Shown piece after piece: positions 6,826 to 58,632 of a DNA stretch of 64,000 nt (position 1 is the first letter of the stretch; each line of letters starts with the position of its first letter). The translations under genes were made by a program, and so were the position numbers. The notes beneath the pieces were generated by a model. That model made no database searches, was not told where the DNA came from, and was given only the letters and a program-made list of their open reading frames with translations. The DNA comes from an uncultured Clostridium sp. (GTDB taxonomy: Bacteria; Bacillota; Clostridia; TANB77; CAG-508): assembly GCA_930982035.1 (NCBI GenBank), contig CAKNJL010000003.1:858-64857 (forward strand). The letters run 5' to 3'.

Positions 6826-6843
6826 AGTTATTCCATTCTAAAA

Positions 6844-29114: not shown

Positions 29115-29918
29115 TTATGAATTTGAATCTACTATTCCTGTTCCTATTTCTGCTCTTATAGATGGATCATAACCTTTTACATAGTTTGTTGTTAATGCTG
29201 CTTTAATTTGTGTTGTTGTGTCATTAGTTATATTTTGAGCACTTAACATACGAGTATATAATTCATATTGAATTGTTTCTAGATGTTCTTTTACATTTTT
29301 AACTTTATTTTTTAATACATCTGAACTTAGTCCTGCAAATTTAATTGCTTGTCCATTTATCAAGTTAACTGTTATTAATTTTTTTATTTGTGTAATGTGT
29401 TCATCTATTCTATCAAACGATGTTGATACTGAATTAGCTAAATTTGTTAAAGCATTCCCATCTGCTATTAGAACAGCTCCTTCTTCACATTCTGATTTAC
29501 CTATAGTTCCTAAGTCCTTTTTTGTTATATTATCAATCAATACATATTGATTTACTGCATCGGCAAATTTTTGTATTTTTCCATATTTTGAATATGATTT
29601 TTTTGTTTGCTCTGAATTTTTCATTTTATGACATACATCTGTTGCTGTTATTCTTACTAATTCTTCTACCACTGTACTAATCTTGTTTAAGCGAACAACT
29701 CCTTCTGTATCCCACCAACTTGCAAAACTTGCAGCTGCATCATCATACCATTTTCCTTTCATCATAATTGTTTCTATAAATGTTCTTGCAACATTTCTTA
29801 CCTCTGTTTGTATCTCTCTTGTACTAAGTACTAAACTATTTAAATAAAGATTATATTCTGCTAAATTATATTGTCCATCTGCTTTAAATTTTCCTGATAA
29901 ATCTTTTAATTTTGGCAT
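29115..29918 (-). CDS. hypothetical helical protein upstream of essC (possible T7SS-associated substrate/accessory; unassigned)
   Basis: 267 aa, no TM, predicted helical; own terminator, so separate transcription unit from essC. Confidence 0.35.
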   Translation of the reverse strand: MPKLKDLSGKFKADGQYNLAEYNLYLNSLVLSTREIQTEVRNVARTFIETIMMKGKWYDDAAASFASWWDTEGVVRLNKISTVVEELVRITATDVCHKMKNSEQTKKSYSKYGKIQKFADAVNQYVLIDNITKKDLGTIGKSECEEGAVLIADGNALTNLANSVSTSFDRIDEHITQIKKLITVNLINGQAIKFAGLSSDVLKNKVKNVKEHLETIQYELYTRMLSAQNITNDTTTQIKAALTTNYVKGYDPSIRAEIGTGIVDSNS

Positions 29919-30041
29919 ATTCTTTTCCTCCTTTTATATCCTAACTATACAAATTTAAGTTTTTTTGTATGTTAAATTAACAATAACCTAAAAAAAAATG
30001 TTTGTCAATACATATTTTATAATTTTTTTATTTTTTAAATT

Positions 30042-30965
30042 CTATCTCCTTCTATCTACCGCATAGCTACTTCCCATTACTGATTTTGCCGCATGTTTTA
30101 CTTGTGCTCCTACTTCTCCTATTTCTAGTATATTACTAAATCTTCCTGTATCTGCAACAACAACTCCTATTGAAAGTGATGTTAGAGGAAATTGTTCTAT
30201 TATTCCTTTTCTATTTTCAACTTCAATATATCCTCTTTCTAAGTCCTTATCTGTAAAGAATCTTTTTACTTGACTATCAAACATTGTTAGTATATTTTGA
30301 CATATCTTTTCACAATTTATTGATGGCAATATTGCTACAAAATCGTCACCACCAATATGCCCTACAAATGCTTCTTCCGTAAGGTCTGTGTGTACTCCTC
30401 TTAAAATTGTTTCTGCTGTAAATTCTATTATTTGATCTCCTTTTACAAATCCATATACATCATTATATGCTTTAAAATTATCTAGGTCTAAATACAATAC
30501 AGAAAAAGGTTCTCCTTTTGATATTCTCTTTTTTAATTCAGCATGTATTTGGACATTTCCAGGTAGTCCAGTAAGAGGACTTACCTTTCTATTGTTAGTT
30601 AATAATCTATTTAAATTTTTTACTGTGTAATAAAGATATTCTTCATCTACTGGTTTCTTAATATAATATTCTATAGATTCTCTTAATATTTTCATTCTAT
30701 GTTCTTTATCATTGTTAGATGAAACAACTATAACTGGTGTTATTTTATTATCTTCATCTCGTCTTATCTGTTTGCAAATTCCTACTACTTCTCTATCTAT
30801 TGCATCTTCATTAATAATAATTAGAGAAGGTATGTTTTTTAATGCTATGTCTATTTGCTCAGATTTGACACTTATGAATTTGTAATCTTTATCATTTTTA
30901 AATAATTCTCTAAATATAACTATAGATGAATCGTCATCATCAATAATGTAAATTTCCTGAACCAT
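30042..30965 (-). CDS. response regulator with receiver domain and GGDEF domain (diguanylate cyclase-like, GGDDF variant)
   Basis: N-terminal REC (DD...K), C-terminal LTGLPG...YLDLDNFKAYND...GGDDFVAIL. Confidence 0.7.
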   Translation of the reverse strand: MVQEIYIIDDDDSSIVIFRELFKNDKDYKFISVKSEQIDIALKNIPSLIIINEDAIDREVVGICKQIRRDEDNKITPVIVVSSNNDKEHRMKILRESIEYYIKKPVDEEYLYYTVKNLNRLLTNNRKVSPLTGLPGNVQIHAELKKRISKGEPFSVLYLDLDNFKAYNDVYGFVKGDQIIEFTAETILRGVHTDLTEEAFVGHIGGDDFVAILPSINCEKICQNILTMFDSQVKRFFTDKDLERGYIEVENRKGIIEQFPLTSLSIGVVVADTGRFSNILEIGEVGAQVKHAAKSVMGSSYAVDRRR

Positions 30966-30966
30966 T

Positions 30967-31737
30967 TTAATCCCCCTCTTTTTTTCTCTTTTTTAATTCT
31001 ATTTTTTTATTAAGAATTTCTGTAAACTCTTTAGTATCTATTGCTGGGAATGCTTTCTTTAATCTATATGCCCTTTTATACAAATTTCTTAATGTTTTAT
31101 CTCTTTTAGTTTTTAATTTGTCTACTAGCATTTGAATATTATCATTTGTAACATTTTTTTCTTTTAGTTCTAACAATTTTTCTTTGATTTGCTCATTTAT
31201 TTCTTCTATTTTTTGTAATGTTGTTTGTATATTTTTTACTTTTACTATACTTATTATTGCATCAATTAATAATATTAGTGCTATTATGCTAGCTATTATT
31301 GCTACATATATATAATCTACATATCCTATTATGTGTTGTATAAATGGATGTATATATTTTATAAATAAAACTCCTAATACTCCCCAAGCTAATGAATTTG
31401 CTAGACATACTCTTCCTTTAAAATTAAATCTATTTTTAGAGTAATCCCAATATTTAGTTTTGAATAACTTTTCTAAAAGTACTCCTACTATATATTCCCA
31501 TATTGATAAAACTATAAAAGATATAAAAAACAATAAAATAATATTATTTTCAAATCTATTTAAAAATAATATCATTATTATGGCCCCGAATCCATATATT
31601 GGACAAAATGGCCCTATAAGAAATCCTGTATTTATTATTTTTCTTTCACATATAGTTCTTACTATACTTTCTAATGTCCAACCTAAAAATGAATAGATAA
31701 TAAAATATATTAATATATAAAAAAATGTATTATCCAT
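30967..31737 (-). CDS. polytopic membrane protein (putative ABC-transporter type IV / CmpB-like family) with C-terminal charged coiled tail
   Basis: 256 aa, 5-6 TM helices, FLGWTLE start motif; 1-bp gap to downstream GGDEF gene. Confidence 0.4.
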   Translation of the reverse strand: MDNTFFYILIYFIIYSFLGWTLESIVRTICERKIINTGFLIGPFCPIYGFGAIIMILFLNRFENNIILLFFISFIVLSIWEYIVGVLLEKLFKTKYWDYSKNRFNFKGRVCLANSLAWGVLGVLFIKYIHPFIQHIIGYVDYIYVAIIASIIALILLIDAIISIVKVKNIQTTLQKIEEINEQIKEKLLELKEKNVTNDNIQMLVDKLKTKRDKTLRNLYKRAYRLKKAFPAIDTKEFTEILNKKIELKKRKKEGD

Positions 31738-31892
31738 TTTTTCCCCTTAACAAAAAATATTTTAAAAATTTTGATTTAGTAACAAAATGTATTTTATTTA
31801 ACTACAAAATATTAGTTTTAATATGTTCTCATTCACAATTGTTATATTTTGTCGAAATCAAAATACATTTTGTTACCTGTCCCCAATTGTAT

Positions 31893-32804
31893 TTATTTAT
31901 TTGCTCTAACTTTTCTTGTATCAGATGCTATTCCATCAACATTATAAGCTGTTATTTCTAGTATATTTTCATCATTTTCTATTAGTGGAAATCTATATTT
32001 TACTTCTGTTGCATTATCTTCTACTGTAACAGTTTTGCTTTCACCTCTTAATGTAACTTCTACTCTATCTAATCCTGTTTCATCTGTAATTGTAACTAAG
32101 TAATTTTCTTTTGCTTCATCTGCTCCTATTTCTATAACTGGTTTTGTAACTCCTTTTACTTTTTGTTCTTTTGTAATTGTTTCATTATTTACATCTACTA
32201 ATATTACTGTTAAATTATGTTCTCCCATTGGTATATCTATTTCTTGATCAACTGTTGTTGAATTGATATCTATTCTTTGTTCTTCCTCATCATCCCATCT
32301 ATATGTCATATATGATATCTCTGTCTCATTTTCTGCTGTTATTTTTAATTTACTTCCAGATACAGCTAAATTAATTATATCTTCTGCTGTATAGTCTATG
32401 TCTGTAGATATTTCTTGTCCATTTATATCTATAGCTCTTACATTTAACGTGTTTGTTCCGCCTGGGATTTCTACTTCTATTTCTATATTTTTTCTTCCAT
32501 TTCCCGTTACTGTTTCTACTTCTCCATCATTCCATTTGTATTCGATTCTATCTATTGCCTTGTCATGTGCAACTGATACTAGTACTGTTTTTTCGTCTTT
32601 TTGTGTTTCTGTTATTGTTGGCTTGGTTACTTCTGAATTTTTACTTTCGTTATCTTTATACATTGCATATGAACCTGTCCCTATCATGAAAACTCCAAAT
32701 ACAATCATTACTATTGCAAATACTTTAACAATTGTTTTTATATCTGCCGGTCCGCTTCTTTTCTTTTTAGATGTAGCTTCACTTGTGGCTAAGATTTGAT
32801 TCAT
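31893..32804 (-). CDS. single-pass membrane protein with repeated Ig-like/beta-sandwich extracellular domains
   Basis: TM helix IVKVFAIVMIVFGVFMIGTGSYAMY; start moved to Met10 (RBS agaggtg; promoter TTTACA-17-TGgTATAAT at 32837..32865 overlaps the longer ORF). Confidence 0.5.
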   Translation of the reverse strand: MNQILATSEATSKKKRSGPADIKTIVKVFAIVMIVFGVFMIGTGSYAMYKDNESKNSEVTKPTITETQKDEKTVLVSVAHDKAIDRIEYKWNDGEVETVTGNGRKNIEIEVEIPGGTNTLNVRAIDINGQEISTDIDYTAEDIINLAVSGSKLKITAENETEISYMTYRWDDEEEQRIDINSTTVDQEIDIPMGEHNLTVILVDVNNETITKEQKVKGVTKPVIEIGADEAKENYLVTITDETGLDRVEVTLRGESKTVTVEDNATEVKYRFPLIENDENILEITAYNVDGIASDTRKVRANK

Positions 32805-32902
32805 ACTTTTCACCTCTTTAACATTCTTCATGGCAAATTATACCATACCAATTTTTAATTGTAAAGTCTAACTTTCATTAAACTTTTTTAAGGGCTGTTT
32901 GC

Positions 32903-33183
32903 AAAATCATTAAGTTATAGATTGGTAAAGGACACCACTATGTCAAAGTATATAATATAAAAAAATGAACGATTTTGCATATCTAAATTTGAATTAGAAA
33001 TTCTTAAAGAAAAAAAGGTGTGATATGCACGGTACTCTCGATAAGAGAGGGTCTGAGTGCAAGAACACCTCTTTTTCTTTTAAAATTTCTTTGAAAATTT
33101 AGCTTATATAAAATTGTGAATGATTTTATATTATATACTTTGACATAGTGGTGTCCTTTACCAATCTATAACTTAATGATTTT
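32903..33183. repeat. 58-bp perfect inverted repeat (32903..32960 / 33126..33183) flanking a 165-bp segment that contains a bidirectional terminator hairpin
   Basis: aaaatcattaagttatagattggtaaaggacaccactatgtcaaagtatataatataa and its exact reverse complement; core ggtgtgatatgcacgg..ctctcgataagagag..gtgcaagaacacc flanked by A and U tracts. Confidence 0.7.
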
Positions 33184-33184
33184 G

Positions 33185-33248: not shown

Positions 33249-36200
33249 TTATAACACAAATCTCTTAATTAGGACTATTCCTCCTGCTAATGTTCCTAAC
33301 ACTGTAAATCCTAATGTAAAATACATTACTGCTCTACCTGTTTCTATTGATAACAATACTGGGGCGTCATCTATATCGTCTTCTCCCTCTACTTGGTTAT
33401 CTGGTGTTGAGTCTCTATCTGGTACTCCTTTGTCATTATAGTCTTCTGATATTTCTGCTATATTTGTCATTTGTCCCATATTGTCTTCTCCATTTATCCA
33501 TGTTAATACTACTTCCACTTCTGCTGACTCTCCTGGTTGTAATAATGTATTTTCCAATAATCTTGTTGATATTATATTATTTCCTTCATCTGTCCAGCCT
33601 GGATTATCTTCTGCTACAAACATTAGTCCTTCTGGTACATAGTCTGTTATTTCTTTTGCATATCCTGCTATGTCTCCTTCGTTTGTTACTCTTATTTTGT
33701 ATCTGAATTTTACTGTTACATCATTTAAGTTCTTTCTATATAATTCTACTTTTACTACTGGCTCTGGATCCATTTCTGCTGTGTGTCCTGTTTGTGTTAC
33801 TGTTTCTTTTCCGTCTTCTATTACTATTGCTTCTGTTACCCATTTTCTTAATGCTAAATCAAAATATGTTAGTTTGATATATTCTCTATCTTGGTCATCT
33901 TCTCCTTCATTCCATTCATTTGGTGTTGAGTCTATATCTTCTACTGGATTTCCATTTTCATCACTATCTTCTGATATCTGTGCTGAGTTTACTATTATTC
34001 TGTCTGAACCATTTGGCTCTACTACTTCAAATGCTATTTTTACATCTCTATAATCTGGATTTCCTTCTCCTATTGGCTCATCTGGGTTAAATGCTTGTAA
34101 TAGATTTTCTCCTTCTGTCTCTTCTTGTTCTTTTGATAAATAATCTGTTCTTATTTCTACTGCTTCGTCTACATTTTCTGTTACATTTCCTTCTTCATCA
34201 TACATTACCCATCTGTATTCTACATTTGTTGCATTTTCTGGTAAGAATCTTAGTCCGTCTGGTATATCATCTGTTATTTCACTTGCATATCCTGCCATAT
34301 CACCTTCGTTAAATACTCTTATTGTATATTCTACTACATTTCCTGTCACTACTTCTACTGGGTCTTTTGTATGATTATATGTTATTTGATTTTCTTCTCT
34401 GTTATAACTTACCTCTGGTACTCTTGTTGTCACTTCTCCTTCATCTACTTTTGTGATGAATTTTCTTAATGCTAAATCAAATTCTTTTTCTTCTATTATT
34501 ACTTTTTCGAAGTCATCATCATCTTCTTGTCCTGGTACATAATCTTTGTCTATTTCATCATCTTTATATCCTGGTAAGTCTTCTGGTATTTCTATATTGT
34601 CTGGCGTTGAATCTTTGTCTGGCACACCTTCTTCATTGTAATCATCTGTTATTTCTGCTAAGTTTGTTAGTTTTACATTTGTTTGTGCTGTCTCTTTTAC
34701 CTTACATGCTACTTTTACTTCTTTGTAGTCTAATGTTGTTCCATCAAATGCTTTTATTAGATTTTGTCTTTGTTCTGTCTCTTTTTCTCTTGATAAATAG
34801 TCTGTTTTTATTTCTACTGCTTCTTCTGCATTTTCTGTTACATTCCCTTCTGCGTTATACATTACCCATTCATATTGTTGATTTGTTTCATGTTCTGGTA
34901 AAAACTCTAGTCCTTCTGGTATATAATCTGTTACTTCTTCTGCATATCCGTCTATTTCTCCTTCATTATATACTCTTATTGTGTATATGATTTCACTATT
35001 TTTACTTACTGTTACTGGTTGTTTTGGATGATTATATGTTGCTGTTCCTTCACTTTCTATTGTACTTGTATCTACTACTGGCTCTCTATTATATGATGTT
35101 CCATCTACTTTACTTATAAATTTTCTTAATGCTAAATCAAATTCTTTTATTTCTTTATTTGGTACTGTTATTGTAATTATATTCCCATTTAAAGAAACTT
35201 TTGCTCCTTGGTCTCCTCCTGATGTTAAACTTACATTTGTTGCTTCATATGTATTACTGTCTTCTCCACTTACTCCTTTTTCTACTTCTACTGTTATATT
35301 TCCTACTATTATATTATATCCTTCTGGGGCTCTTGTTTCTGTTATTGTTATACTATCTGTTCCCGCTTGTGTAATTTGCACTGTCCCTAGATTTAATATT
35401 CCATTTACTGTTGTTCCTGTTTGAGCAGTGCTTTGCCCTGGTAATGTCCAACTAAATCCTGCTCCTGATGTCGTTATTAGATTTCCATCCTCATCTACTT
35501 TTTGTAATTGTAATTCATATGAACCTGTTCTTTCTGATACTAATACTTTTTCGAAGTCATCATCATCTTCTTGTCCTGGGATGTATTGATCTCCTCTTTC
35601 TATTTCTTCATCTCTATATCCTGGTAAATCTTCTGGTATTTGCAAATTATCTGGTGTTGAATCTTTATCTGGTTCATTATAGTCATTATAATCATCTGTT
35701 ATTTCTGCTAAATTTGTTAATTTTACATTTGATTCAACATCTGCTTTTACTTTACATACTACTTGTATTTCTTTATAACTTAATGTTTCTCCATCAAATG
35801 CTTTTATTAAATTCTGTCTTTGATCTGTTTCTTTTTCTTTAGATAAATAATCTGTTTTTATTTCTACTGCTTCTTCTGCATTTTGTGTTATATTTCCTTC
35901 TGCATTATACATTACCCATTCATATTGTTGATTTACTCCATTCTCTGGTAAAAATTCTAATCCTTCTGGTATATAATCTGTTACTTCTTCTGCATATCCG
36001 TCTATTTCTCCTTCATTATATACTCTTATTGTGTATGTTATTTCACTTTCTCTGTTTACTCTAATTGGTTCTTTTGTGTGATTATATGTCCCTGTTCCTT
36101 CACTTTTTATTGTACTTGTATCTACATTTGGTTGTCTATTATATGATGTTCCATCTACTTCACTTATAAATTTTCTTAATGCTAAATCGAATTCTTTTAT

Positions 36201-38312
36201 TTCTTTATTTGAAATTGTTATCTTTATTACTCCATTTTCTAGACTTGCACTCGCATTTGTATTTTCTGGAACAACTTTTGCATCTGTTACTGTATAAATT
36301 CCATTTACTAGTTCTTTTGTTATCTCTACTGTTATGTTTCCTATTAATGGATTGTATCCTGTTGGTGGATTTGTCTCTGTTATCGTTATTGTATCTGTTC
36401 CTGTTTGTGTAATTTCTACTGTTCCTAAATCTAGTAATCCATTTGCAGTAGTTCCTGTTCTATCTTGTTCTTCTCCTGGTAATCTCCAACTAAATCCTGC
36501 ATTTGATGTTGTTATTAGATTTCCATTTTCATCTACTTTTTGTAATTGTAATTTATAATTTCCTTCTGCCTTTGGTATTATTATTTTTTCAAAATCATCA
36601 TCATCTTGTTGTCCTGCAAAATAACTATTATTATCTGTTATGTCTTTTCCATTATTACTTGCATTTCCTCTATATCCTTCATCTTCAGTTACTAATTGGT
36701 CTTTTGTTTGTGTTTGTATCGTTGATGGTTCTGAATCTCTGTCTTTTCCTACTTCTGTTGTTATTGTTTCTCCTGTTACTCCATCTACTTCTTCTGCTAT
36801 CCATGCGATATTTGTTAATATTTTATTATTTGCTCCTGCTGTCCCTGTTACTTTACATTTTATTTGTATTACTTCTGAACTTAATGTTGTTCCATTATAT
36901 GCTGGTAAATTAGTTGTATTTCCTGATTTCCTTGTCAATGTTAATGTATTATTTGTTTGATCATATCCCCCTGCTAATACTTCAAAGTCTCCACTTACCA
37001 CTTCCGTAAATTCTAATCCTTCTGGTAATTGGTCTACTATTTTTGTTGCTCTTCCTTCTTTTTCTCCTTCATTATATATGCTTATACTATATGTAATATA
37101 ATCTCCTGTACTTACTACTACTGGGTCTTTTCTGTTATAATATTCTGCTGTTGTTGTTGTTCCTTGTATTGTTGTTTGATTTATATTTTTAACTGTTCCA
37201 TCTGTATTTAATTGTCTTTCTGCATTTTCTCCTTCTAGATTCGTAATTCCTTTTCCTGTTCCTTCACTATTTGTTATTGATACTATTGATTTTCTTAATG
37301 CTAAATCAAATTCTTGTGGATTTCTTTCTACTTTCATTAATGGTTGTGCATCTCTTTGTTTTGTTGAAGCATACAATATTAATTTATTTTTATGTTTAAC
37401 GTTTGAATCGGCATATTGATTTGCATTTGCTTTTGCTGTTTTTATTAGGTAATTATATAACTTTACAGCTTGTTGTTGTCTTGCATTACCTGCACCTTGA
37501 TCTTCAAATGTTGCCCCTGTTGGGTTATAACTTGCTAAATTTTGGTAAGTTGAAGAATCTGTTGTATAAAATAGCCATGATGACTCATCTGTTTTATCAT
37601 ATTTTCTTTCATCACCATACATTTCATCATAATTTGTAAAATACCATATTGCTGCTTGTTGAACTGACTCTATTTCATCATCTGTTATATAAAACTGTTC
37701 TTCTCCTTCTACTCCTTCAAATTCCTCCCATATATCTGTTACTTTTGCTTGTGTTAATAATTCTTCTCTTTCTGTTTCTGTTGATTCTCCTGGTAAATAA
37801 ATCAAATTAGCTAATGCAAGTAATTCATTATAATGTCCTCCATTTACAAGATTATATAATATTTTATTACTTGTACTTTCATCTTCTTTTGCTATTTGGT
37901 CTCTTTCTGTATACATATCAAATTCTAAGTCATATTCTTGTGTACCTCTTATACCTTCTCCTTCTGTAAATCCTACTCCAGCTTTTACACAATACACATT
38001 AACTTTCATTGGATTAGTTGCAGATGATGTATTATATTGCACAATATTCCATATTTTTGCAGATGGTCCCCCTGTTGTTCCATCGCCATTTGCTTTTGGA
38101 TCTCCAATTGAATACCCTATATTACTTCCTACTTCAATTTCTTGTATTCCAAAATATAGTGATGGATTCATTTGTTTAGCTTCTACTACATTATTCAATA
38201 AGCTTATAATTAAAATAATTATAAAAATAATAATTCCTTTTATTCTATTCATACTAGTTTTCCTCCAATAATTCTTTATTATAAGTATAATCGATTTTAT
38301 AAGTATTTTCAA
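33249..38312 (-). CDS. large surface adhesin: signal peptide, N-terminal thioester-like (TQXA-type) domain, multiple DUF11 and SpaA/CnaB-type isopeptide-fold repeats, C-terminal ETG + TM + KRFVL sorting signal
   Basis: YCVKAGVGF (Cys) and SVQQAAIWYF (Gln) motifs; repeats GDYITYSISIYNEGE..IVDQLPEGLEF (DUF11); ITITETNPPTGYN; C-term LLSIETGRAVMYFTLGFTVLGTLAGGIVLIKRFVL. Confidence 0.7.
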   Translation of the reverse strand: MKILIKSIILIIKNYWRKTSMNRIKGIIIFIIILIISLLNNVVEAKQMNPSLYFGIQEIEVGSNIGYSIGDPKANGDGTTGGPSAKIWNIVQYNTSSATNPMKVNVYCVKAGVGFTEGEGIRGTQEYDLEFDMYTERDQIAKEDESTSNKILYNLVNGGHYNELLALANLIYLPGESTETEREELLTQAKVTDIWEEFEGVEGEEQFYITDDEIESVQQAAIWYFTNYDEMYGDERKYDKTDESSWLFYTTDSSTYQNLASYNPTGATFEDQGAGNARQQQAVKLYNYLIKTAKANANQYADSNVKHKNKLILYASTKQRDAQPLMKVERNPQEFDLALRKSIVSITNSEGTGKGITNLEGENAERQLNTDGTVKNINQTTIQGTTTTAEYYNRKDPVVVSTGDYITYSISIYNEGEKEGRATKIVDQLPEGLEFTEVVSGDFEVLAGGYDQTNNTLTLTRKSGNTTNLPAYNGTTLSSEVIQIKCKVTGTAGANNKILTNIAWIAEEVDGVTGETITTEVGKDRDSEPSTIQTQTKDQLVTEDEGYRGNASNNGKDITDNNSYFAGQQDDDDFEKIIIPKAEGNYKLQLQKVDENGNLITTSNAGFSWRLPGEEQDRTGTTANGLLDLGTVEITQTGTDTITITETNPPTGYNPLIGNITVEITKELVNGIYTVTDAKVVPENTNASASLENGVIKITISNKEIKEFDLALRKFISEVDGTSYNRQPNVDTSTIKSEGTGTYNHTKEPIRVNRESEITYTIRVYNEGEIDGYAEEVTDYIPEGLEFLPENGVNQQYEWVMYNAEGNITQNAEEAVEIKTDYLSKEKETDQRQNLIKAFDGETLSYKEIQVVCKVKADVESNVKLTNLAEITDDYNDYNEPDKDSTPDNLQIPEDLPGYRDEEIERGDQYIPGQEDDDDFEKVLVSERTGSYELQLQKVDEDGNLITTSGAGFSWTLPGQSTAQTGTTVNGILNLGTVQITQAGTDSITITETRAPEGYNIIVGNITVEVEKGVSGEDSNTYEATNVSLTSGGDQGAKVSLNGNIITITVPNKEIKEFDLALRKFISKVDGTSYNREPVVDTSTIESEGTATYNHPKQPVTVSKNSEIIYTIRVYNEGEIDGYAEEVTDYIPEGLEFLPEHETNQQYEWVMYNAEGNVTENAEEAVEIKTDYLSREKETEQRQNLIKAFDGTTLDYKEVKVACKVKETAQTNVKLTNLAEITDDYNEEGVPDKDSTPDNIEIPEDLPGYKDDEIDKDYVPGQEDDDDFEKVIIEEKEFDLALRKFITKVDEGEVTTRVPEVSYNREENQITYNHTKDPVEVVTGNVVEYTIRVFNEGDMAGYASEITDDIPDGLRFLPENATNVEYRWVMYDEEGNVTENVDEAVEIRTDYLSKEQEETEGENLLQAFNPDEPIGEGNPDYRDVKIAFEVVEPNGSDRIIVNSAQISEDSDENGNPVEDIDSTPNEWNEGEDDQDREYIKLTYFDLALRKWVTEAIVIEDGKETVTQTGHTAEMDPEPVVKVELYRKNLNDVTVKFRYKIRVTNEGDIAGYAKEITDYVPEGLMFVAEDNPGWTDEGNNIISTRLLENTLLQPGESAEVEVVLTWINGEDNMGQMTNIAEISEDYNDKGVPDRDSTPDNQVEGEDDIDDAPVLLSIETGRAVMYFTLGFTVLGTLAGGIVLIKRFVL

Positions 38313-38516
38313 TAGTAAATTTAGCTATTTTTATTATTATTTATTCTACCTTAGGGAAATAGCCTTTTCAGTTTTACAATATCATTACAATTTCTTTAAA
38401 TTTTTATTACAAATAAAACTATTGAACAATAACGAGCATTTTTGACGTTTTTCCAAAAAAAGAGAATATTTTTCTATTTAATAGTTAAAATATTCTCTTT
38501 TTTTATTAATTATCTT

Positions 38517-41500
38517 TTATAACACAAACTTTTTAATTAGTGCTATTCCTCCTGCTAATGTTCCTAACACTGTAAATCCTAATGTAAAATACATTACTGC
38601 TCTACCTGTTTCTATTGATAACAATACTGGGGCGTCATCTATATCGTCTTCTCCCTCTACTTGGTTATCTGGTGTTGAGTCTCTATCTGGTACTCCTTTG
38701 TCATTATAGTCTTCTGATATTTCTGCTATATTTGTCATTTGTCCCATATTGTCTTCTCCATTTATCCATGTTAATACTACTTCCACTTCTGCTGACTCTC
38801 CTGGTTGTAATAATGTATTTTCCAATAATCTTGTTGATATTATATTATTTCCTTCATCTGTCCAGCCTGGATTATCTTCTGCTACAAACATTAGTCCTTC
38901 TGGTACATAGTCTGTTATTTCTTTTGCATATCCTGCTATGTCTCCTTCGTTTGTTACTCTTATTTTGTATCTGAATTTTACTGTTACATCATTTAAGTTC
39001 TTTCTATATAATTCTACTTTTACTACTGGCTCTGGATCCATTTCTGCTGTGTGTCCTGTTTGTGTTACTGTTTCTTTTCCGTCTTCTATTACTATTGCTT
39101 CTGTTACCCATTTTCTTAATGCTAAATCAAAATATGTTAGTTTGATATATTCTCTATCTTGGTCATCTTCTCCTTCATTCCATTCATTTGGTGTTGAGTC
39201 TATATCTTCTACTGGATTTCCATTTTCATCACTATCTTCTGATATCTGTGCTGAGTTTACTATTATTCTGTCTGAACCATTTGGCTCTACTACTTCAAAT
39301 GCTATTTTTACATCTCTATAATCTGGATTTCCTTCTCCTATTGGCTCATCTGGGTTAAATGCTTGTAATAGATTTTCTCCTTCTGTCTCTTCTTGTTCTT
39401 TTGATAAATAATCTGTTCTTATTTCTACTGCTTCGTCTACATTTTCTGTTACATTTCCTTCTTCATCATACATTACCCATCTGTATTCTACATTTGTTGC
39501 ATTTTCTGGTAAGAATCTTAGTCCGTCTGGTATATCATCTGTTATTTCACTTGCATATCCTGCCATATCACCTTCGTTAAATACTCTTATTGTATATTCT
39601 ACTACATTTCCCGTTACTACTTCTACTGGGTCTTTTGTATGATTATATGTTATTTGATCTTTATCTCTATCATAACTTACCTCTGGTACTCTTGTTGTCA
39701 CATCTTCTTCATCTACTTTTGTAATAAATTTTCTTAATGCTAAATCAAATTCTTGTAACATAATATTATCATAATCTTCGTCATCCTCATATTTTACCCA
39801 TTCTTCTGGACTTGAATCTCTATCATCTACTGGATTTCCTTCGCTATCAGCATCTTCTGTTATTGCTACTTCATTTCTTATAATACCTATACTTGGATCT
39901 TCAGCAGTTACTTTAAGTATTACTGATATTTCTCTATAATCTGGATTTCTATTATCTTCTGTGTCAGAGTATGGACTATTTGGATCAAATGCTTTTATTA
40001 GATTAGCTCCTGGTGTTGTTATTTCTTCTCCTTTACCTCTTCCTAAGTAGTCTGTTGAAATCATATTAGTGTCTCCATCAACATAAGTCCAGCCCATTGA
40101 TGTGTTAAATTCTACTGCTGATAATTTATCTTCGTCTGTTATTGGTTCCATATTTTCATCTACATTTGTTCCTAAAAATGTTAGTCCTTCTGGGATGTCT
40201 TCTGTTATTTCTTCTGCATATCCATCTATGCTTCCTTCATTATATATTCTAAATGTATATGTTACTAAGTCTCCAGTTTGTACTGTAATTGGATCTTTAT
40301 TTAATTGATAATCTGCTGTTGTTGCTGTTCCATTTGCTAGATTTGTAATATCTACACCTAATAATCTTTCTGGAACTGCTTCCCCATTTACTTCTGTAAT
40401 TCTTTTTATTAATGCTAAATCAAATTCATTACTATCAATAATTAATTTTTCAAAATCATCATCATCTTGTTGTCCTTCATAGAAGTAATCTGAATCTGTT
40501 AATTCTTCTTTATTATCTTCATTTCCTGTATAGTCTTCCATATTGTCTTTATCTACATTTGGTGCTGTTCCTGGTTCTGAATCTCTGTCAGCACCTGTTT
40601 CATTTATTATTTCATTTCCATATTCATCTACTTCTTTTGATATCCATGCTACATTTGTTAAAACTTTTCCATTTTCACTTGTATCTACAGTACATTCTAT
40701 TTCTATAGTCTCTGCTTCTGCTACTAGATTTCCTTCTGTGTATGCTGGTATATTTTCTGTGTTATCAGTATTTCTAGTTATTGTTAATCTGTTTGTTCCT
40801 TCATCATATGATGCTGTAAATCCTGGTGTATTTATTTTTGAGTATTTTAAACCTGTTGGCAATTGGTCAATTATCTCTGTTGCTCTTCCGTCTAAATCTC
40901 CTTCATTATATATTGTAATGTTATATGTAACTATATCTCCATTTTCAACTTTTACTGGATCTTTTCTATGGTTATATTCTGCTGTTGTACCATTTTTCAA
41001 AGTACTTTCGTCTACATTTGGTACTCTTGTATCTGTAACATTTACGCCATTTACTTTTGTTATATATTTTCTTAATGCTAGGTCAAATTCTTGGTCTTCT
41101 CTTTCAACTTTCATTAATGGTTGTGCATCTCTTTGTTTTGTTGAAGCATATAATGTTAATTTATTTCTATGTCTAACATTTGGGTTTGCATATTGGTCTG
41201 CATTTGCTTTCGCAGTTTCTATCAAGTAATTATATAATTTTACAGCTTGTTGTTGTCTTGCATTACCTGCACCTTGGTCTTCAAATGCTGCCCCTGTTGG
41301 GTTATAACTTGATAAATTTTGGTAAGTTGAAGAATCTGTTGTATAAAATAACCATGATGACTCATCTGTTTTGTCATATTTTCTTTCTCCATTATACATT
41401 TCATCATAATTTGTAAAATACCACATTGCTGCTTGTTGAACTGACTCTATTTCATCATCTGTTATATAATACTGTTCTTCTCCTTCTACGCCTTTAAATT

Positions 41501-42038
41501 CCTCCCATATATCTGTTACTTTTGCTTCTGTTAATAATTGTTCTCTTTCTGCATCTGTTGACTCCCCTGGTAAGTAAAGTAGATTTGCTAATGCAAGTAA
41601 TTCATTGTAATGTCCACCATTTACAAGATTATATAATATTTTATTACTTGTATTTTGATCTTCTGTAGCTATTTGATCTCTTTCTGTATACATATCAAAT
41701 TCTAAGTCATATTCTTGTGTACCTCTTATCCCTTCTCCTTCTGTAAATCCTACTCCGGCCTTTACACAATATACATTAACTTTCATTGGATTAGTTGCAG
41801 ATGATGTATTATATTGCACAATATTCCATATTTTTGCTGAAGGTCCTCCTGTACTACTATCACCATTCGCTTTTGGGTCTCCTATTGAATATCCCATTTC
41901 ACTTCCTACTTCAATCTCTTGAATTCCAAAATATAGTGATGGTGACATTGTTTTTGCATTTACTATACTAGGTAATATTGCTAAACATACTGCTAATAAT
42001 GTTCCGATAAAACTTTTTACAATTCTCTTTTTACACAT
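38517..42038 (-). CDS. paralogous surface adhesin (1173 aa) sharing near-identical N-terminal thioester-like domain and C-terminal ~470 aa with 33249..38312
   Basis: C-terminal ~1.35 kb of DNA nearly identical between the two genes (identical antisense ORFs 33347..34312 and 38615..39580); same sorting signal. Confidence 0.7.
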   Translation of the reverse strand: MCKKRIVKSFIGTLLAVCLAILPSIVNAKTMSPSLYFGIQEIEVGSEMGYSIGDPKANGDSSTGGPSAKIWNIVQYNTSSATNPMKVNVYCVKAGVGFTEGEGIRGTQEYDLEFDMYTERDQIATEDQNTSNKILYNLVNGGHYNELLALANLLYLPGESTDAEREQLLTEAKVTDIWEEFKGVEGEEQYYITDDEIESVQQAAMWYFTNYDEMYNGERKYDKTDESSWLFYTTDSSTYQNLSSYNPTGAAFEDQGAGNARQQQAVKLYNYLIETAKANADQYANPNVRHRNKLTLYASTKQRDAQPLMKVEREDQEFDLALRKYITKVNGVNVTDTRVPNVDESTLKNGTTAEYNHRKDPVKVENGDIVTYNITIYNEGDLDGRATEIIDQLPTGLKYSKINTPGFTASYDEGTNRLTITRNTDNTENIPAYTEGNLVAEAETIEIECTVDTSENGKVLTNVAWISKEVDEYGNEIINETGADRDSEPGTAPNVDKDNMEDYTGNEDNKEELTDSDYFYEGQQDDDDFEKLIIDSNEFDLALIKRITEVNGEAVPERLLGVDITNLANGTATTADYQLNKDPITVQTGDLVTYTFRIYNEGSIDGYAEEITEDIPEGLTFLGTNVDENMEPITDEDKLSAVEFNTSMGWTYVDGDTNMISTDYLGRGKGEEITTPGANLIKAFDPNSPYSDTEDNRNPDYREISVILKVTAEDPSIGIIRNEVAITEDADSEGNPVDDRDSSPEEWVKYEDDEDYDNIMLQEFDLALRKFITKVDEEDVTTRVPEVSYDRDKDQITYNHTKDPVEVVTGNVVEYTIRVFNEGDMAGYASEITDDIPDGLRFLPENATNVEYRWVMYDEEGNVTENVDEAVEIRTDYLSKEQEETEGENLLQAFNPDEPIGEGNPDYRDVKIAFEVVEPNGSDRIIVNSAQISEDSDENGNPVEDIDSTPNEWNEGEDDQDREYIKLTYFDLALRKWVTEAIVIEDGKETVTQTGHTAEMDPEPVVKVELYRKNLNDVTVKFRYKIRVTNEGDIAGYAKEITDYVPEGLMFVAEDNPGWTDEGNNIISTRLLENTLLQPGESAEVEVVLTWINGEDNMGQMTNIAEISEDYNDKGVPDRDSTPDNQVEGEDDIDDAPVLLSIETGRAVMYFTLGFTVLGTLAGGIALIKKFVL

Positions 42039-42295
42039 AACATATCTCTCCTTATTTTAATTACACTGTATTTATATTTTACATCATTTTTTTATTAAGT
42101 CAATAACATTTTTTTCTTATTTTTAGCTTTATAAGAATAAGAAAAATTTTCTGCTAGGGATATACGTTATACATGTTTTCCTCCCTTTTTTATCCCCACA
42201 TTACAATTATATTACATTTTTGTTATAAATTCAAGCATTTATGTTAATTTGTTTGTATTTTCCTTTATTTCCGTAGGTTTTATTCATTTTTACTA

Positions 42296-42612
42296 AGAAC
42301 AATAGCGGGCTTTCTTAAACATTTTTTTCTGTTCATAACATTTCAAAGCCCGCGTCATTGTTCGGCGCCAAATTTTACGCTAGTAAAATTTGTGTGCAAC
42401 CACTAGAGCGAAGCGACGTTCTTGAATAGGAAAAACTTGATTTTTCCTATTCAAGAACAATAGCGGGCTTTCTTAAACATTTTTTTCTGTTCATAACATT
42501 TCAAAGCCCGCGTCATTGTTCTGCGCCAATTTTACGGAAGTCAAAATTGTGTGCAACCGTTGGAGCGAAGCAACTTTTATACAATAGGAAAGTATCACTT
42601 TCCTATTAAAAA
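42296..42612. repeat. two tandem copies of a ~160-bp three-hairpin intergenic repeat (family A)
   Basis: gaacaatagcgggctttc..gaaagcccgcgtcattgttc; caaattttacgctagtaaaatttg; gttcttgaataggaaaaacttgatttttcctattcaagaac; third copy at 54856..55016, partial relatives at ~3965-4013 and 63961-64000. Confidence 0.7.
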
Positions 42613-52310: not shown

Positions 52311-54167
52311 TTACTCTAATTCTTCCTCTTCTTCCTTATCATCTTGTACAACTTTTTGTTCTTTTGAACTATCACTTCTATTCATTAACTCTTTTGGTGG
52401 ATTTATTTTACATTTTTCAACCACATTATCTTTTTTGGCATTTGTTGATTTTTTTGATTCCTCATTTTCTTTTTCAATTTCTAATCGTTGTGGTATTGTG
52501 TCACTTTCTATTGTTTTATTATTCTCTAAACTTTCTATTACTTCATTGTATTTTGCATAAATTGTTTTTGCTTTTTCTCCACTAACAATTTTTTCTAATA
52601 ATCTACGTAATTCTTGAGTTTCATATACTGCCATTTGTGATTTTGAAGGTTTTCCAAATAATTTTCTAATTTTTCTTTCTATCCATCTTGTCTTTTTCTT
52701 TGCATCAATTTTTAAAACTCTTAATTCTTCTATGTATTCTTCAGATGTTAATAATGGGCTAACTTCTCCTCCATCACATATTGTATAAACTTTATCAGAT
52801 AAATCATCGAATTTCTTTTGACATTCTTTTATTATTTTTTCATCTTCTTGTGTTATGGTTGGCTTATCAGTAATTTCAAGGTATTTTCTTCTTATTTGAT
52901 TTATTTTTCCTATCTCTACTAAATCTGCCGCTGTAAATGATTTTTCTTCATACAAATTTTCTTTATCATCTAAAACTTGTATTTTTAATGGTACATATTT
53001 TAATGCTTTATCCATTTCTTCTTTTGTATATCCTTTTTCTATACAACTTTTATAATATTCTCTTATTTTCTCACTCTTCTCTACTAATTCTTCTGGTTCA
53101 ATATCTGGTCTTATTTTATTTACAATCATACTTATTCTATTTTCTATAGCCTTTGTTCTTCTGTCATCATCTTCTTGTTCTTCTTTTTTTGCTTCACTAT
53201 CACTTGTTTTAGTTTCTTTTGATTTTTTATCATCTTTATTTTCTAAAGATTGTTCATTGTTAGTTTCATTCTTTTTATTTTCATCTTCTTTTTTACTATC
53301 TTTTTCTTTGTCCTCTTTTTTTGATTTATCATCTTTTGGTTTATCTTCTTTTTCTTCTTTGTTACCTTCTTGAAAATTATCTTTTCCTTTTGAATTAGTA
53401 TTATCTTTGACTTTATCTTTCATATATTTTTCTTTTATTGATTTTAACATATCGCTAAGTTTGTTTTTTTGCTCAATTAATTCTTCTTTTTCTCTCTTTA
53501 ATTCTTCGCTTTGTAGTTCTTTGTTATCTACAGTTGTTTCTGCAACTAAAGCATTAATTTGTTTGTCTAAATCTATAACAGCTTTTTCTACATTTTCATT
53601 AAGTCTTTTTCCCTCTGTTCCTTTATATGTTTTTGTTTTTTGATGCAAGTTACTCATTTTATTTTTAGCAACTCTTAGTTTTTCTCTTTTTTCAACTTTT
53701 TTTATAACTTCCTCTTTTTTGGCAATTTCATCATCAATTTTTTTCTTTTTTTCTTCAATAATTTCTTCTAATTGATTTAATACTTCTTCTATAATGTCAT
53801 CTACTGATATTGATTTTTGTGGTTCTTTTAAAAATCCTGCTTTTTCCAATGAAACTTTTTCTAAGATTTCATCAGCAATTCCATCTTTTGCTTGTTGTTT
53901 TAAATCATTTTTTAGGACGTCATCTTGAATCTCTTCTAATACACCTTCACCTTTTAATTGTTGAAGTTCTTTAAATCCTTCTTTTTCTTCTTCTAGTGCT
54001 TCATCAACTGTTTTTTGAGCTACAAAATCTCCAATTTTTTTCTTATTCACTTCTATAAGCTCTTCTACAATAGTTTGTACTTGCTCTTGAAACTTTTCAT
54101 CCTTTGTATCTAATCCATTAAATTTTTCTTTCAAATCTTTCTTCATATCATCTGTTAAAATATCCAT
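52311..54167 (-). CDS. hypothetical K/E-rich low-complexity coiled-coil protein
   Basis: 618 aa, long charged repeats KKEDKEKDSKKEDENKK, acidic C-terminus. Confidence 0.45.
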   Translation of the reverse strand: MDILTDDMKKDLKEKFNGLDTKDEKFQEQVQTIVEELIEVNKKKIGDFVAQKTVDEALEEEKEGFKELQQLKGEGVLEEIQDDVLKNDLKQQAKDGIADEILEKVSLEKAGFLKEPQKSISVDDIIEEVLNQLEEIIEEKKKKIDDEIAKKEEVIKKVEKREKLRVAKNKMSNLHQKTKTYKGTEGKRLNENVEKAVIDLDKQINALVAETTVDNKELQSEELKREKEELIEQKNKLSDMLKSIKEKYMKDKVKDNTNSKGKDNFQEGNKEEKEDKPKDDKSKKEDKEKDSKKEDENKKNETNNEQSLENKDDKKSKETKTSDSEAKKEEQEDDDRRTKAIENRISMIVNKIRPDIEPEELVEKSEKIREYYKSCIEKGYTKEEMDKALKYVPLKIQVLDDKENLYEEKSFTAADLVEIGKINQIRRKYLEITDKPTITQEDEKIIKECQKKFDDLSDKVYTICDGGEVSPLLTSEEYIEELRVLKIDAKKKTRWIERKIRKLFGKPSKSQMAVYETQELRRLLEKIVSGEKAKTIYAKYNEVIESLENNKTIESDTIPQRLEIEKENEESKKSTNAKKDNVVEKCKINPPKELMNRSDSSKEQKVVQDDKEEEEELE

Positions 54168-54283
54168 ATTTTATCTCCCCTATCTTTAATAAACTCTTTT
54201 TCCATTATATCATATATTTTACATTTTCGCAACTTTTTATGTAAATTTTTAGAGAGAGCTTACAAGCTCTCTCTCGATAATAA

Positions 54284-54721
54284 CTAACTTTTTAATTTTT
54301 TTATTATTTCTCTTATCTTTTGTTTTTGAGTTTTTCTTAGCAATTTACTACTACTTAACGCCTCTCCTTCTATAATCAATTTTTTCTCTAAATTTTCAAG
54401 CGTTCCTTTTAATACTTTTGCGTGTTCAGGTCCTTCTTGTTTTTCAAGCATTCTACATAACGCTTTTATTTCTAGCACCCAACTACAGAACCAACAATAC
54501 TCCCGCACTGCATTTCTGGCAAGTATGATTGTTTTAAATACTTTATATGCTATATATATCAATATAGTTAAAAATATAGCATAATTAATTGCTAATAAAT
54601 CCACTGCTATTTCGTTCATTTTCCCTTGAAAAAAAATAACAGATGCATAACCTGTTAATCCTACATAAATTGCTAACAAAATTAAAATAATTTTTACCAT
54701 TGTTTTTGCTTTCTTAGTCAT
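54284..54721 (-). CDS. hypothetical membrane protein (2 TM) with C-terminal basic tail
   Basis: 145 aa. Confidence 0.4.
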   Translation of the reverse strand: MTKKAKTMVKIILILLAIYVGLTGYASVIFFQGKMNEIAVDLLAINYAIFLTILIYIAYKVFKTIILARNAVREYCWFCSWVLEIKALCRMLEKQEGPEHAKVLKGTLENLEKKLIIEGEALSSSKLLRKTQKQKIREIIKKLKS

Positions 54722-54855
54722 TATCTAATCCTCCTAAAAATTTTTTTATATATTGTCTTCACCTATAAAAAATGAAGAAAGCTACTACTTGTTACACCTC
54801 TATTATACTATATTATGCACTTTTATGTAAACTTTTCTAGTTTCAGATAATAACA

Positions 54856-55016
54856 GAACAATAGCGGGCTTTCTTAAACATTTTTTTGTTCATAACATTT
54901 CAAAGCCCGCGTCATTGTTCGGCGCCAAATTTTACGCTAGTAAAATTTGTGTGCAATTACTAGAGCAAAGCGACGTTCTTGTATAGGAAAAACTTGATTT
55001 TTCCTATACAAGAACA
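54856..55016. repeat. third copy of family A three-hairpin repeat
   Basis: near-identical to 42296..42458. Confidence 0.7.
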
Positions 55017-55227
55017 AATCTAGTTTGCTAGATCTTTTATCTACTTTTTAACAGTTGCTACATTAATTAAGATCTAGGAAGAAGCGTATAAGATTTGTTG
55101 TGCGAAAAATTGTGAAATAGCTTTTCTGTGCAATCCTTTTTTAAATCCTAGTAAATGCAAATTCCTAGAATTTAAAAAAGATTTATTCATATTAATATTG
55201 AATAAATCTTTTAATCATTTTATATTT

Positions 55228-55533
55228 CTATATTTTTCCTTCTTTTTGTAGTTGGTCAATATCATGTTTTAATATCTCATTGAAACATTCTGACCCCGCT
55301 TTTACTACTAATTCATCAAATAATTCTTCATCTTCAACATGTGCGAAAATATCATCCTTTACTTTATATAGAAATGCTACTTCTAAATTTTTATTATTAA
55401 CAGTCGCTAAATCTATAGCATAAAAATACTCTTTATTTTCATAAACAAATTGTTTAATAATGTACATTTTTTTTCCTTGATATTCAATTGTCTTATTTTC
55501 CCAATCTACTATCAAACTTTCTCTTAATCCCAT
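55228..55533 (-). CDS. hypothetical small protein immediately downstream of large repeat protein
   Basis: 101 aa, 24-bp gap to upstream gene. Confidence 0.4.
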   Translation of the reverse strand: MGLRESLIVDWENKTIEYQGKKMYIIKQFVYENKEYFYAIDLATVNNKNLEVAFLYKVKDDIFAHVEDEELFDELVVKAGSECFNEILKHDIDQLQKEGKI

Positions 55534-55557
55534 AAAATCCTCCTCATCATCTTTTGA

Positions 55558-58500: not shown

Positions 58501-58632
58501 TTCTAAGACATTTAATTCTTCTTCTCTACCAACTCTCTCTTCTTCATTTAGATTTTGAATCTCATTAATTTTACTCTCTAATAATCTTTTTAATTCGTTC
58601 AAATCTTTTCCATTAATTAAATTATCTTCCAT
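55558..58632 (-). CDS. large hypothetical protein with N-terminal coiled-coil tandem repeats (3 x ~48 aa and 2 x ~45 aa), Gly-rich linker, central hydrophobic segment and C-terminal domain
   Basis: repeats QQQIQDLEKLLKQSAERMAEY.R.GF.NQE.AEHQEYNRIL.KINELK and KWHPRLTPEQIEELIAEGIEPGDQEYNRYLWDHGINPFEK; hydrophobic LALATAGIVTGPIGWAGAAGVAALSYFGA. Confidence 0.5.
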   Translation of the reverse strand: MEDNLINGKDLNELKRLLESKINEIQNLNEEERVGREEELNVLEEDNKRLDELLTERKKYRDEIANNRKNGIKPSRKDNPSYKLYPINKELEEMFDKYDVEISKDVPEGEKAPETKEPENEIEQTIADLEKQLQETAKRMKEYGDNGFENQEAAEHQEYNKILARINELKEITEQTQENSTQQQIQDLEKLLKQSAERMAEYKRGGFENQEIAEHQEYNRILTKINELKGKEEQAQENSIQQQIQDLEKLLKQSAERMAEYRRNGFYDQASGEHQEYNRILTKINELKNREKENEQNDKEIEENAQNGEIKWHPRLTPEQIEELIAEGIEPGDQEYNRYLWDHGINPFEKGKENEKTDKVESKWHPRLTPEQIEELIAEGIEPGDQEYNRYLWDHGINPFEKDKEKEPKGRDDDSEGPEGPGGGTDGPGGGKEDPEDDGGKIIGGPDDHRVGPGGGRGDDPDLHPTIQTGLQIFRREFNEMPEILKKHTFSENPLLPLPGSVALALATAGIVTGPIGWAGAAGVAALSYFGAKPLLRKITGQSKLEKQITEQFNDMDPKELKAMADYLTEERIIDLKPNAVILRALNRSLRTIAQRENADLEREMNEAEQERDELLAREEPLTESEKERLETLKKEIDDKVKEMEDNERRAKEARRGKERISAAYKGNIRGSKILNIFHKRNSTTQEYKDALNEYADKEKEMLEAEKKGDAISAAKAQKEMKETGEKNTYTNGLRILRSPFNMRSAPARVVSDREDHTVRNVGMFAMAWASITRTLRGLYKANEAVEQVVDQYNKDANTVNNFANQFNNQQNSFTNASTSITDSNITRAARAHAKGIADAGEINSMRLNGNASLDPSYVQSDKVINSRIDTMSQNIGKFPSNSSVSDKLRWLADYLKSGESTATLKESQNLAGNIHSGAGVDHLSQIDLQQTAIRDNKNVAKLYDKFADLYDQGQGFLKMKAPTLKTMTQDFKADLIGPFAQFFTTLSAPVIDIFKGRDKYKVKPEEDREEVDDDKKKDNSEER

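Follow-up and report, generated by a model that had tools for sequence, protein, structure and literature searches.

Tandem paralogous genes of an uncultured gut Clostridia bacterium very probably encode fibrillar thioester adhesins that exchange sequence by gene conversion

Organization of the Adhesin Genes

The 64,000-nt stretch of metagenome assembly analyzed here (the window, to whose positions all coordinates refer) comes from an uncultured Clostridium sp. and carries on its minus strand two tandem paralogous genes, gene A (42038..38517, 1173 residues) and, downstream of it, gene B (38252..33249, 1667 residues), both recognized as open reading frames (ORFs). We propose, with high confidence, that they are separately transcribed genes for Sec-exported fibrillar adhesins of the TIE type, which exchange sequence by gene conversion. 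The domain identities, residue conservation, fold, repeat structure, and concerted evolution that carry this proposal are direct observations; the covalent bonds, the ligand, and the chemistry of anchoring are predicted from them.

The gene A product consists of a signal peptide (residues 1–28), a thioester domain (TED, 29–315), four CLIPPER domains (D1, 316–536; D2, 537–761; D3, 762–967; D4, 968–1136), and a C-terminal tail (1137–1173). The gene B product has a signal peptide (1–25), a TED (26–312), CLIPPER D1 (313–560), a SpaA-like domain S1 (561–685), CLIPPER D2 (686–908), a second SpaA-like domain S2 (909–1035), CLIPPER D3 (1036–1255), D4 (1256–1461), and D5 (1462–1630), and a tail (1631–1667). 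The signal peptides of the two proteins end at VNA/K and VEA/K. The start of gene B was set at the ATG at 38252, rather than at the TTG at 38312 that the ORF list gives further upstream, because this ATG lies 8 nt 3′ of a GGAGGA box, a putative ribosome-binding site, and because the resulting 1667-residue product is identical to database protein P0032; the gene A product is identical to database protein P0126.

A hairpin followed by a T-run (AAAGAGAATATTTT...AAAATATTCTCTTTTTTT; 38455..38505, minus strand), read directly from the sequence 3′ of gene A, is likely to be an intrinsic terminator; a consensus scanner did not list it because of its AT-rich stem. On the basis of this hairpin and the 204-bp spacer between the genes, gene B probably has its own promoter, such that the two genes would be transcribed separately. 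The GC content of the adhesin genes (~31%) is slightly higher than that of the window (~26%). Searches of the whole window and of both leader regions against Rfam gave no match, including none to a cyclic di-GMP (c-di-GMP) riboswitch, despite the presence of a neighboring GGDEF gene.

The N-Terminal Thioester Domains

The first-pass annotation of this DNA had proposed that both proteins begin with a near-identical domain of ~330 residues in which Cys (YCVKAG) and Gln (VQQAAIW) positions are reminiscent of thioester adhesins. A shared domain is present, but it is smaller (287 residues) and less uniform than proposed, with 90% identity at the protein level and 91.3% at the DNA level over 877 bp (41942–41066 versus 38165–37289). 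The gene A TED (41094..41954, minus strand) contains Cys91 in a VYCVKAG motif and Gln201/Gln202 in a SVQQAAMW motif; the gene B TED (37317..38177, minus strand) is 90.2% identical to it by blastp. Both are matched by the Pfam TED family PF08341 above its cut-off of 22 bits (30.6 bits for gene B and 28.9 bits for gene A).

Residue conservation was assessed across 63 homologous N-terminal domains, clustered at <88% identity and 35%–83% identical to that of gene A. Cys91, Gln202, and Trp206 are present in all 63, and Gln201 in 62. The Cys is embedded in a [VY]-Y-C-[VI]-[KR]-A-G context, and the Gln segment, [AS]-[VI]-Q-Q-A-A-x-W-Y-F-T-N, is almost invariant, with replacement of the usual Thr. An AlphaFold2 (AF2) model of the TED, generated with 23 of the homologue sequences as input, has a mean predicted local distance difference test score (pLDDT) of 89.2 and a predicted TM-score of 0.91. 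When this model was compared with the PDB using Foldseek, the top 12 matches were all TEDs (probability 0.8–1.0), including those of Cpa (4c0z), SfbI (5a0l), and a Clostridium perfringens protein (5a0g), with the class II TED 6fwy ranked far below the class I TEDs. TM-scores to solved TEDs are 0.4 when normalized on the query and 0.5–0.6 on the target, modest values that reflect the greater length of the gene A/B-type TED, which has a helical insertion of ~90 residues.

Taken together, the Pfam scores, the invariant Cys and QQAAxW residues, and a predicted fold that matches only TEDs lead us to assign both proteins as thioester-domain adhesins with a divergent, class-I-like TED, in support of the earlier proposal. 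An internal thioester linking Cys91 to either Gln201 or Gln202 is predicted on the same basis. Several points weigh against the assignment. The model-based TM-scores to solved TEDs are only 0.4–0.6, with the ~90-residue helical insertion; searches of PDB sequences, both with phmmer and with a TED profile, gave no match for the TED; the NCBIfam models for TQXA-type and thioester surface proteins gave none either, TIGR01451 being the only model returned; and sequence cannot by itself reveal thioester or isopeptide bonds, which are predicted here. The missing NCBIfam and PDB sequence matches mark a divergent subfamily and are still compatible with membership of the TED family.

Similarities to the characterized TIE/class I TED adhesins (Streptococcus pyogenes Cpa and SfbI, and the C. 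perfringens Cpe0147-type proteins; 4c0z, 5a0l, and 5a0g) include the location of the TED immediately after the signal peptide, a Cys in a YC motif, a Gln in a motif like TQxA-phi-W (where phi is hydrophobic), the TED fold as the only significant structural match, a stalk of Ig-like domains that are cross-linked in the characterized proteins, and a C-terminal xxxTG sequence followed by a helix and a basic tail. In contrast to these adhesins, to which they are only ~12%–14% identical and which they do not match at the sequence level in the PDB, the gene A and gene B proteins have a TED that is ~90 residues longer with extra helices, VQQAAxW in place of TQxAxW, a stalk of CLIPPER domains rather than of ester-bond or CnaB repeats, and a tail without Pro.

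Among strain-level alleles of gene A (P0001, P0127, P0132, P0134, and P0135; at least 90% identical overall), the TEDs are 81.5% identical and the stalk units 95%–98% identical, a pattern suggestive of diversifying selection on the adhesive tip or of allele replacement there.

The Stalk Domains

Pfam identifies five DUF11/CLIPPER domains (PF01345) in gene B and four in gene A (86–87 bits), and the NCBIfam DUF11-type repeat model TIGR01451, the only NCBIfam model matched, scores 73–106 bits. DUF11 has recently been renamed CLIPPER, and crystallography has revealed that the domain is CnaA-like and contains an intramolecular isopeptide bond between Lys and Asn (PDB 9IFR; PMC12617251); architectures combining a TED with CLIPPER domains are already known in general terms (PMC12617251). 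The SpaA prealbumin-fold family (PF17802) has a single Pfam match, in gene B only (32.2 bits versus a cut-off of 23.1), and the second SpaA-like copy in gene B was recognized by its 54% identity to the first.

FDLALRK and EDDDD, which recur along the proteins, served as landmarks for dividing them into units, and the units were then compared. Three positions are retained in all nine CLIPPER units: a Lys in FDLAL[RI]K, an Asp or Glu in ItDxxPxGL, and an Asn in xxNxAxI. By analogy with Lys715, Asp748, and Asn806 of 9IFR, these are predicted to form an isopeptide triad of a first-strand Lys, a catalytic Asp, and a late-strand Asn. An AF2 model of the last CLIPPER domain and tail matches 9IFR at rank 2. 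PDB sequence searches with the full protein and with a single CLIPPER unit gave no meaningful match. The units thus resemble characterized CLIPPER domains (PF01345, PDB 9IFR; PMC12617251) in HMM matches, fold, Lys/Asp/Asn columns, and tandem use in a stalk. They differ in being longer (170–260 residues versus ~120) with variable insertions, and in that the last unit, next to the anchor, forms a subtype of its own, which is highly conserved and carries a WVTEAIVIEDGKETVTQTGH insertion.

Gene B contains an internal tandem duplication (34487..36616, minus strand), identified by blastn self-comparison, in which [S1-D2] (36616–35531) is followed by [S2-D3] (35578–34487). The duplicated block is ~1.09 kb, corresponds to ~350 residues (a SpaA-like domain plus a CLIPPER unit), and retains 81% DNA identity; at the protein level, D2 and D3 are 79% and S1 and S2 are 54% identical, with a synonymous divergence (dS) of 0.32–0.49. 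A direct duplication within one of the genes, put at ~330 residues, had been noticed in the first-pass annotation and is confirmed here. The same annotation had described DUF11 and SpaA/CnaB repeats in differing number and order; the domain content of the two proteins does differ, but the comparison gave no demonstrable permutation to support the proposed shuffling.

The C-Terminal Tail

Both proteins end with ...GEDDIDDAPVLLSIETG followed by 23 hydrophobic residues and a KKFVL or KRFVL terminus. The SIETG codons lie at 38604..38618 in gene A (minus strand; residues 1141–1145, with KKFVL beyond the hydrophobic residues) and at 33336..33350 in gene B (minus strand; residues 1635–1639, with KRFVL). 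Among 244 unique tails of the family, the consensus is A-P-V-[LMI]-L-[STA]-[IV]-x-T-G, where x is Ser, Glu, Lys, Val, Thr, or Ala. The Thr is present in 95% of tails, with the Gly fixed by the alignment; a Tyr occurs five residues past the Gly in 85%; and the ~5% of tails that lack the Thr have xxxPG, AG, LG, or SG. The proposed LLSIETG/transmembrane/(K/R)FVL ending without LPXTG is thus present, and a search for an LPXTG motif further upstream found none; the motif is, however, not specific to ETG but is better described as [STA][IV]xTG. None of the characterized sorting motifs (LPXTG, (S/P)PXTG, NPQTN, LAXTG, LPNTA, and QVPTGV) occurs near either C terminus, and when the isolated tail was searched against Pfam and NCBIfam at E ≤ 10, no sorting-signal or anchor model was matched. 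The only such motif found was NPPTG at residue 628 of gene B, internal to a SpaA-like domain. No sortase is present among the ORFs of the window, and none was detected by the TLxTC pattern in 1.16 Mb of sequence flanking 70 related loci. A literature search with SIETG, SVETG, and SISTG as motifs returned nothing relevant.

Two readings of the tail were weighed. The first, to which we assign an even prospect, is that it is a genuine cell-wall sorting signal, cut between Thr and Gly by a sortase of undescribed specificity that links the adhesin to peptidoglycan. The layout is that of a sortase substrate, with a signal peptide and a C-terminal motif, hydrophobic segment, and basic tail, the motif lying 32–36 residues from the C terminus; the Thr is retained in 95% of tails while x and the residues after the Gly vary freely, as in LPXTG signals; and rare divergent members carry SPSTG, SPATG, QPATG, or MPKTG at the same position. 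Sortase-type anchoring is probably present in the lineage, given that one related metagenome-assembled genome (MAG; locus L029) encodes a canonical LPKTG protein beside the locus, and the Clostridioides difficile TED adhesin CD3246 (SPKTG) is a sortase substrate (PMC5569036). Against this, position 2 is not Pro, no curated sorting-signal model matches, ~5% of tails lack the Thr, and the genomic searches described above yielded no sortase. SrtB of C. difficile fails in vitro to cleave the closest studied motif, NVQTG, which is that of CbpA (PMC4155245; PMC5569036). There is also no flexible linker: in the AF2 model of the last domain and tail (pLDDT 84), a strand at residues 180–186 (VLLSIET) continues the last CLIPPER domain and ends three residues before a helix (residues 190–213), and this helix has conserved positions of its own (the Tyr at +5, present in 85% of tails, together with the AGG and LIKK[FY]V of the family consensus).

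The second reading, which we rate as falling somewhat short of an even prospect, is that the tail is a plain, uncleaved C-terminal transmembrane anchor in which the V-L-[IV]-T face is buried in the last strand and the Gly is a hinge before the helix. Conservation alternates as it would for a strand with one buried face (Val at −7, Leu at −5, Ile/Val at −3, and Thr at −1 are kept, and −6, −4, and −2 are variable); AF2 models a strand and then a helix here; the unit alignment places APVLL where internal units have their last strand; and the conservation of particular residues within the helix, the tails without Thr, and the fact that the C. difficile NVQTG proteins are not sortase substrates (PMC4155245; PMC5569036) all fit this reading. 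Contrary to it, variants that look canonical, SPSTG and MPKTG, are found at this position, Thr-Gly is near-invariant across clusters defined at 50% identity and more strongly conserved than neighboring exposed positions, the strand is modeled with only moderate confidence (pLDDT 60–77), and a stalk tethered to the membrane would need to pass through the entire wall. Overall, about half of our expectation falls on sortase-type processing and about two-fifths on a retained membrane anchor, with the remainder on something else. The peptide DAPVLLSIETGRAV is a candidate Förster resonance energy transfer substrate for sortase cleavage after the Thr.

The substrates of C. difficile SrtB ((S/P)PXTG) and CbpA (NVQTG) are the nearest points of comparison. 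They too are surface adhesins of clostridia, CD3246 (a predicted thioester protein) among them, in which an xxxTG motif of five residues precedes a hydrophobic segment and a basic tail, and NVQTG has a Val at position 2. Unlike the SrtB substrates, the gene A/B family has Ile or Val in place of Pro throughout, and no linker before the motif. We had considered NVQTG as a sign that clostridial sortases accept Val at position 2, but this was dropped because NVQTG is not cleaved (PMC4155245; PMC5569036). It is a tentative and rather unlikely proposition that A-P-V-L-L-[STA]-[IV]-x-T-G, carried without a linker on a dedicated terminal CLIPPER domain, is a distinct Pro-free envelope-anchoring signal, operating through either a sortase of new specificity or a non-sortase mechanism.

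The LPKTG protein of L029 (2167–2958; Clostridiaceae bacterium S24_Bin1) is a 263-residue secreted protein encoded between plsX and dacF, adjoining the adhesin gene, and has a Gly/Ser/Asn/Thr-rich linker followed by the canonical LPKTG, a helix, and a basic tail. Its presence beside an adhesin gene indicates that canonical and Pro-free tails coexist in the lineage.

Family and Conserved Synteny

More than 2900 homologues were found at E ≤ 1e−10, and a profile of the last domain and tail retrieved 1126 clusters (50% identity) at E ≤ 1e−30; no named protein was present among these homologues and clusters. All 70 loci returned, from species-representative genomes, belong to MAGs of uncultured Clostridia from human, chicken, rabbit, and mouse guts, examples being Clostridium sp. 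CAG:389, 26_22, 27_14, and UMGS1673. A tblastn search against plasmids gave no match. The conserved gene order is plsX-acpP-dacF, the adhesin gene or genes, a gene for a membrane protein of ~312 residues with Ig-like domains, a CmpB-like gene, and a response regulator-GGDEF gene.

In the window, the downstream part of this arrangement lies at 29115–32831 on the minus strand and is syntenic across species. Encoded there are a 312-residue single-pass membrane protein with three Ig-like repeats, for which Pfam has no family; a membrane protein resembling CmpB (PF06541); and a response regulator whose GGDEF-type domain carries the motif as GGDDF. These genes are possibly tied to the adhesins through c-di-GMP control or by supplying a membrane partner for the conserved helix of the tail, the conserved residues of which might dock to the 312-residue protein. 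The synteny around the adhesin genes also takes in housekeeping genes.

Gene Conversion between the Paralogues

Self-comparison of the window revealed a 1238-bp block at the 3′ ends of genes A and B (39754–38517 versus 34486–33249) with 98.7% identity, the 16 mismatches of which lie only at its edges (11 in the first 115 bp and 5 in the last 26 bp). Within it, exact string identity and a mismatch map define a perfect 1069-bp tract (38543..39611 in gene A and 33275..34343 in gene B, both minus strand), which in gene A takes in the greater part of D3, the whole of D4, and the SIETG motif, stopping 26 bp short of the stop codon. This tract is the sole exact repeat of at least 200 bp in the window. 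The shared end had been described as ~1.35 kb of identical DNA encoding a common C-terminal ~470 residues; that the ends are shared holds, with the shorter length and lower identity given here, and the protein block common to both C termini is 412 residues.

Divergence is strongly segmental. The dS between A and B is 0.71 for the signal peptide, 0.288 for the TED (with a nonsynonymous divergence of 0.058), 0.62 for D1, 0.04 for D3/D4, and 0.02 for D4 plus tail. Tandem pairs with a short upstream and a long downstream gene occur in 16 of 67 related loci, and in 12 of these 16 pairs the 3′ 630 bp are closer to the neighboring paralogue than to the copy of any other species. Near-identical tracts of varying length occur in other species, for example one of 1410 bp (99.8% identity) in L005 and one of 1230 bp (99.0%) in L024, and the TEDs of tandem pairs are either homogenized (85%–92%) or clearly distinct (46%–50%).

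Conversion is a common process among paralogous genes for surface proteins. The perfect tract with its sharp edges, the mosaic of dS values, and 3′ ends that are alike species by species together argue for recurrent gene conversion as the source of the 3′ identity, with concerted evolution across species, in agreement with one of the two origins, gene conversion or recent duplication, offered in the first-pass annotation; a single duplication followed by clock-like divergence could not yield the dS mosaic. Metagenome assembly could in principle sharpen an exact 1-kb repeat, which is a point against conversion, but both proteins recur on several independent contigs and other species have similar tracts. 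A single recent whole-gene duplication (or an assembly collapse) followed by divergence is accordingly rated a very improbable source of the near-identical ends, for although genes A and B are in tandem in the same orientation, and repeats in MAG-derived sequence can mis-assemble, dS differs ~30-fold between segments (0.02 versus 0.62–0.71) across sharp tract edges, the short-upstream/long-downstream pair is common to many species with 3′ ends alike within each, and the same two proteins are found on separate contigs.

Proposed Model and Implications

We propose the following model for the two adhesins, the host of which would be an uncultured gut Clostridia bacterium of ~26% GC and of the "Clostridium sp. 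CAG:389/26_22" type. A class-I-like TED at the tip may bind covalently through reaction of its Cys-Gln thioester with a target nucleophile, with the CLIPPER stalk, each unit of which has Lys/Asp/Asn isopeptide positions, keeping the tip away from the cell. In gene B, two SpaA/CnaB-type domains and the internal duplication would yield a longer stalk. The last, highly conserved CLIPPER domain runs into APVLLSIETG, one predicted membrane helix, and a KK/KR tail, by which the C terminus would be fixed to the envelope. A very recent conversion tract (at least 1069 bp) is proposed to have homogenized the anchor end, and an older conversion event the TED, with the middle stalks and signal peptides remaining divergent. 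The outcome would be two adhesins with similar tips and anchors and different reach.

Genes A and B add new, divergent members to a known class, the thioester/isopeptide fibrillar adhesins, and none of the findings overturns current understanding; the sole mildly novel element is the family-wide Pro-free, linker-less xxxTG tail. We know of no function for any surface protein of this uncultured gut Clostridia group; in these abundant, small-genome bacteria, the adhesins are probably major organelles for binding to a host or partner. A covalent-binding tip on two stalk lengths offers a simple model for the diversification of adhesin reach and specificity, in which gene conversion maintains uniformity at the anchor end only, and variation among strains is concentrated in the TED. 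The Pro-free xxxTG tail, which is shared by >1000 adhesin clusters, is a testable candidate for an undescribed anchoring specificity.

Other Elements of the Window

Two kinds of structured element flank the adhesin genes. Within the 800-bp divergent spacer upstream of gene A, an element of ~150 nt is present as a tandem pair (42295–42591, minus strand; 89% identical), and contains a long hairpin (GAACAATGACGCGGGCTTT...AAAGCCCGCTATTGTTC) with a minimum free energy of about −42 to −47 kcal/mol. A third copy, with 96% identity, is located at 54855–55002, and partial copies occur in the MAG loci L008, L036, L038, L011, and L002. No Rfam family matches the element; candidate identities for it are a dispersed repeat, a leader element, and a small RNA. 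Directly 3′ of gene B is a palindromic element of ~285 bp (32900–33184) with outer arms of ~70 bp that are perfectly complementary and a fold energy of −145 kcal/mol; a related copy lies directly 3′ of the adhesin gene in L011 (9684–9895). It could be an insertion resembling a miniature inverted-repeat transposable element or a very strong bidirectional terminator.

The minus strand also encodes a 1549-residue EssC-like protein (24096–28745) with an FHA domain and two FtsK/SpoIIIE stretches, and an adjoining 267-residue helical protein (29115–29918) with no Pfam family; these could be a remnant or the core of a type VII secretion locus. The region 1243–23463 resembles a mobile element, and contains two adjacent large serine recombinases (5308–8409), a MobA/VirD2 relaxase (16958–18229), an N6 DNA methylase with a helix-turn-helix domain (1243–2904), a HEPN/nucleotidyltransferase pair (22719–23463), and a VanY/M15 peptidase beside a HisRS-like gene. 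The related contig L001 lacks this block between its GGDEF gene and its amidase/GNAT genes.

On the other side of the adhesin genes, four minus-strand ORFs at 52311–58632 (618, 145, 101, and 1024 residues) match no Pfam family. The 618- and 1024-residue products are acidic and rich in coiled coils, without signal peptides, and the four ORFs occupy a place in which rpoB/rpoC might have been expected, with rpsL/rpsG on one side and a GidA-family gene (PF01134) on the other.

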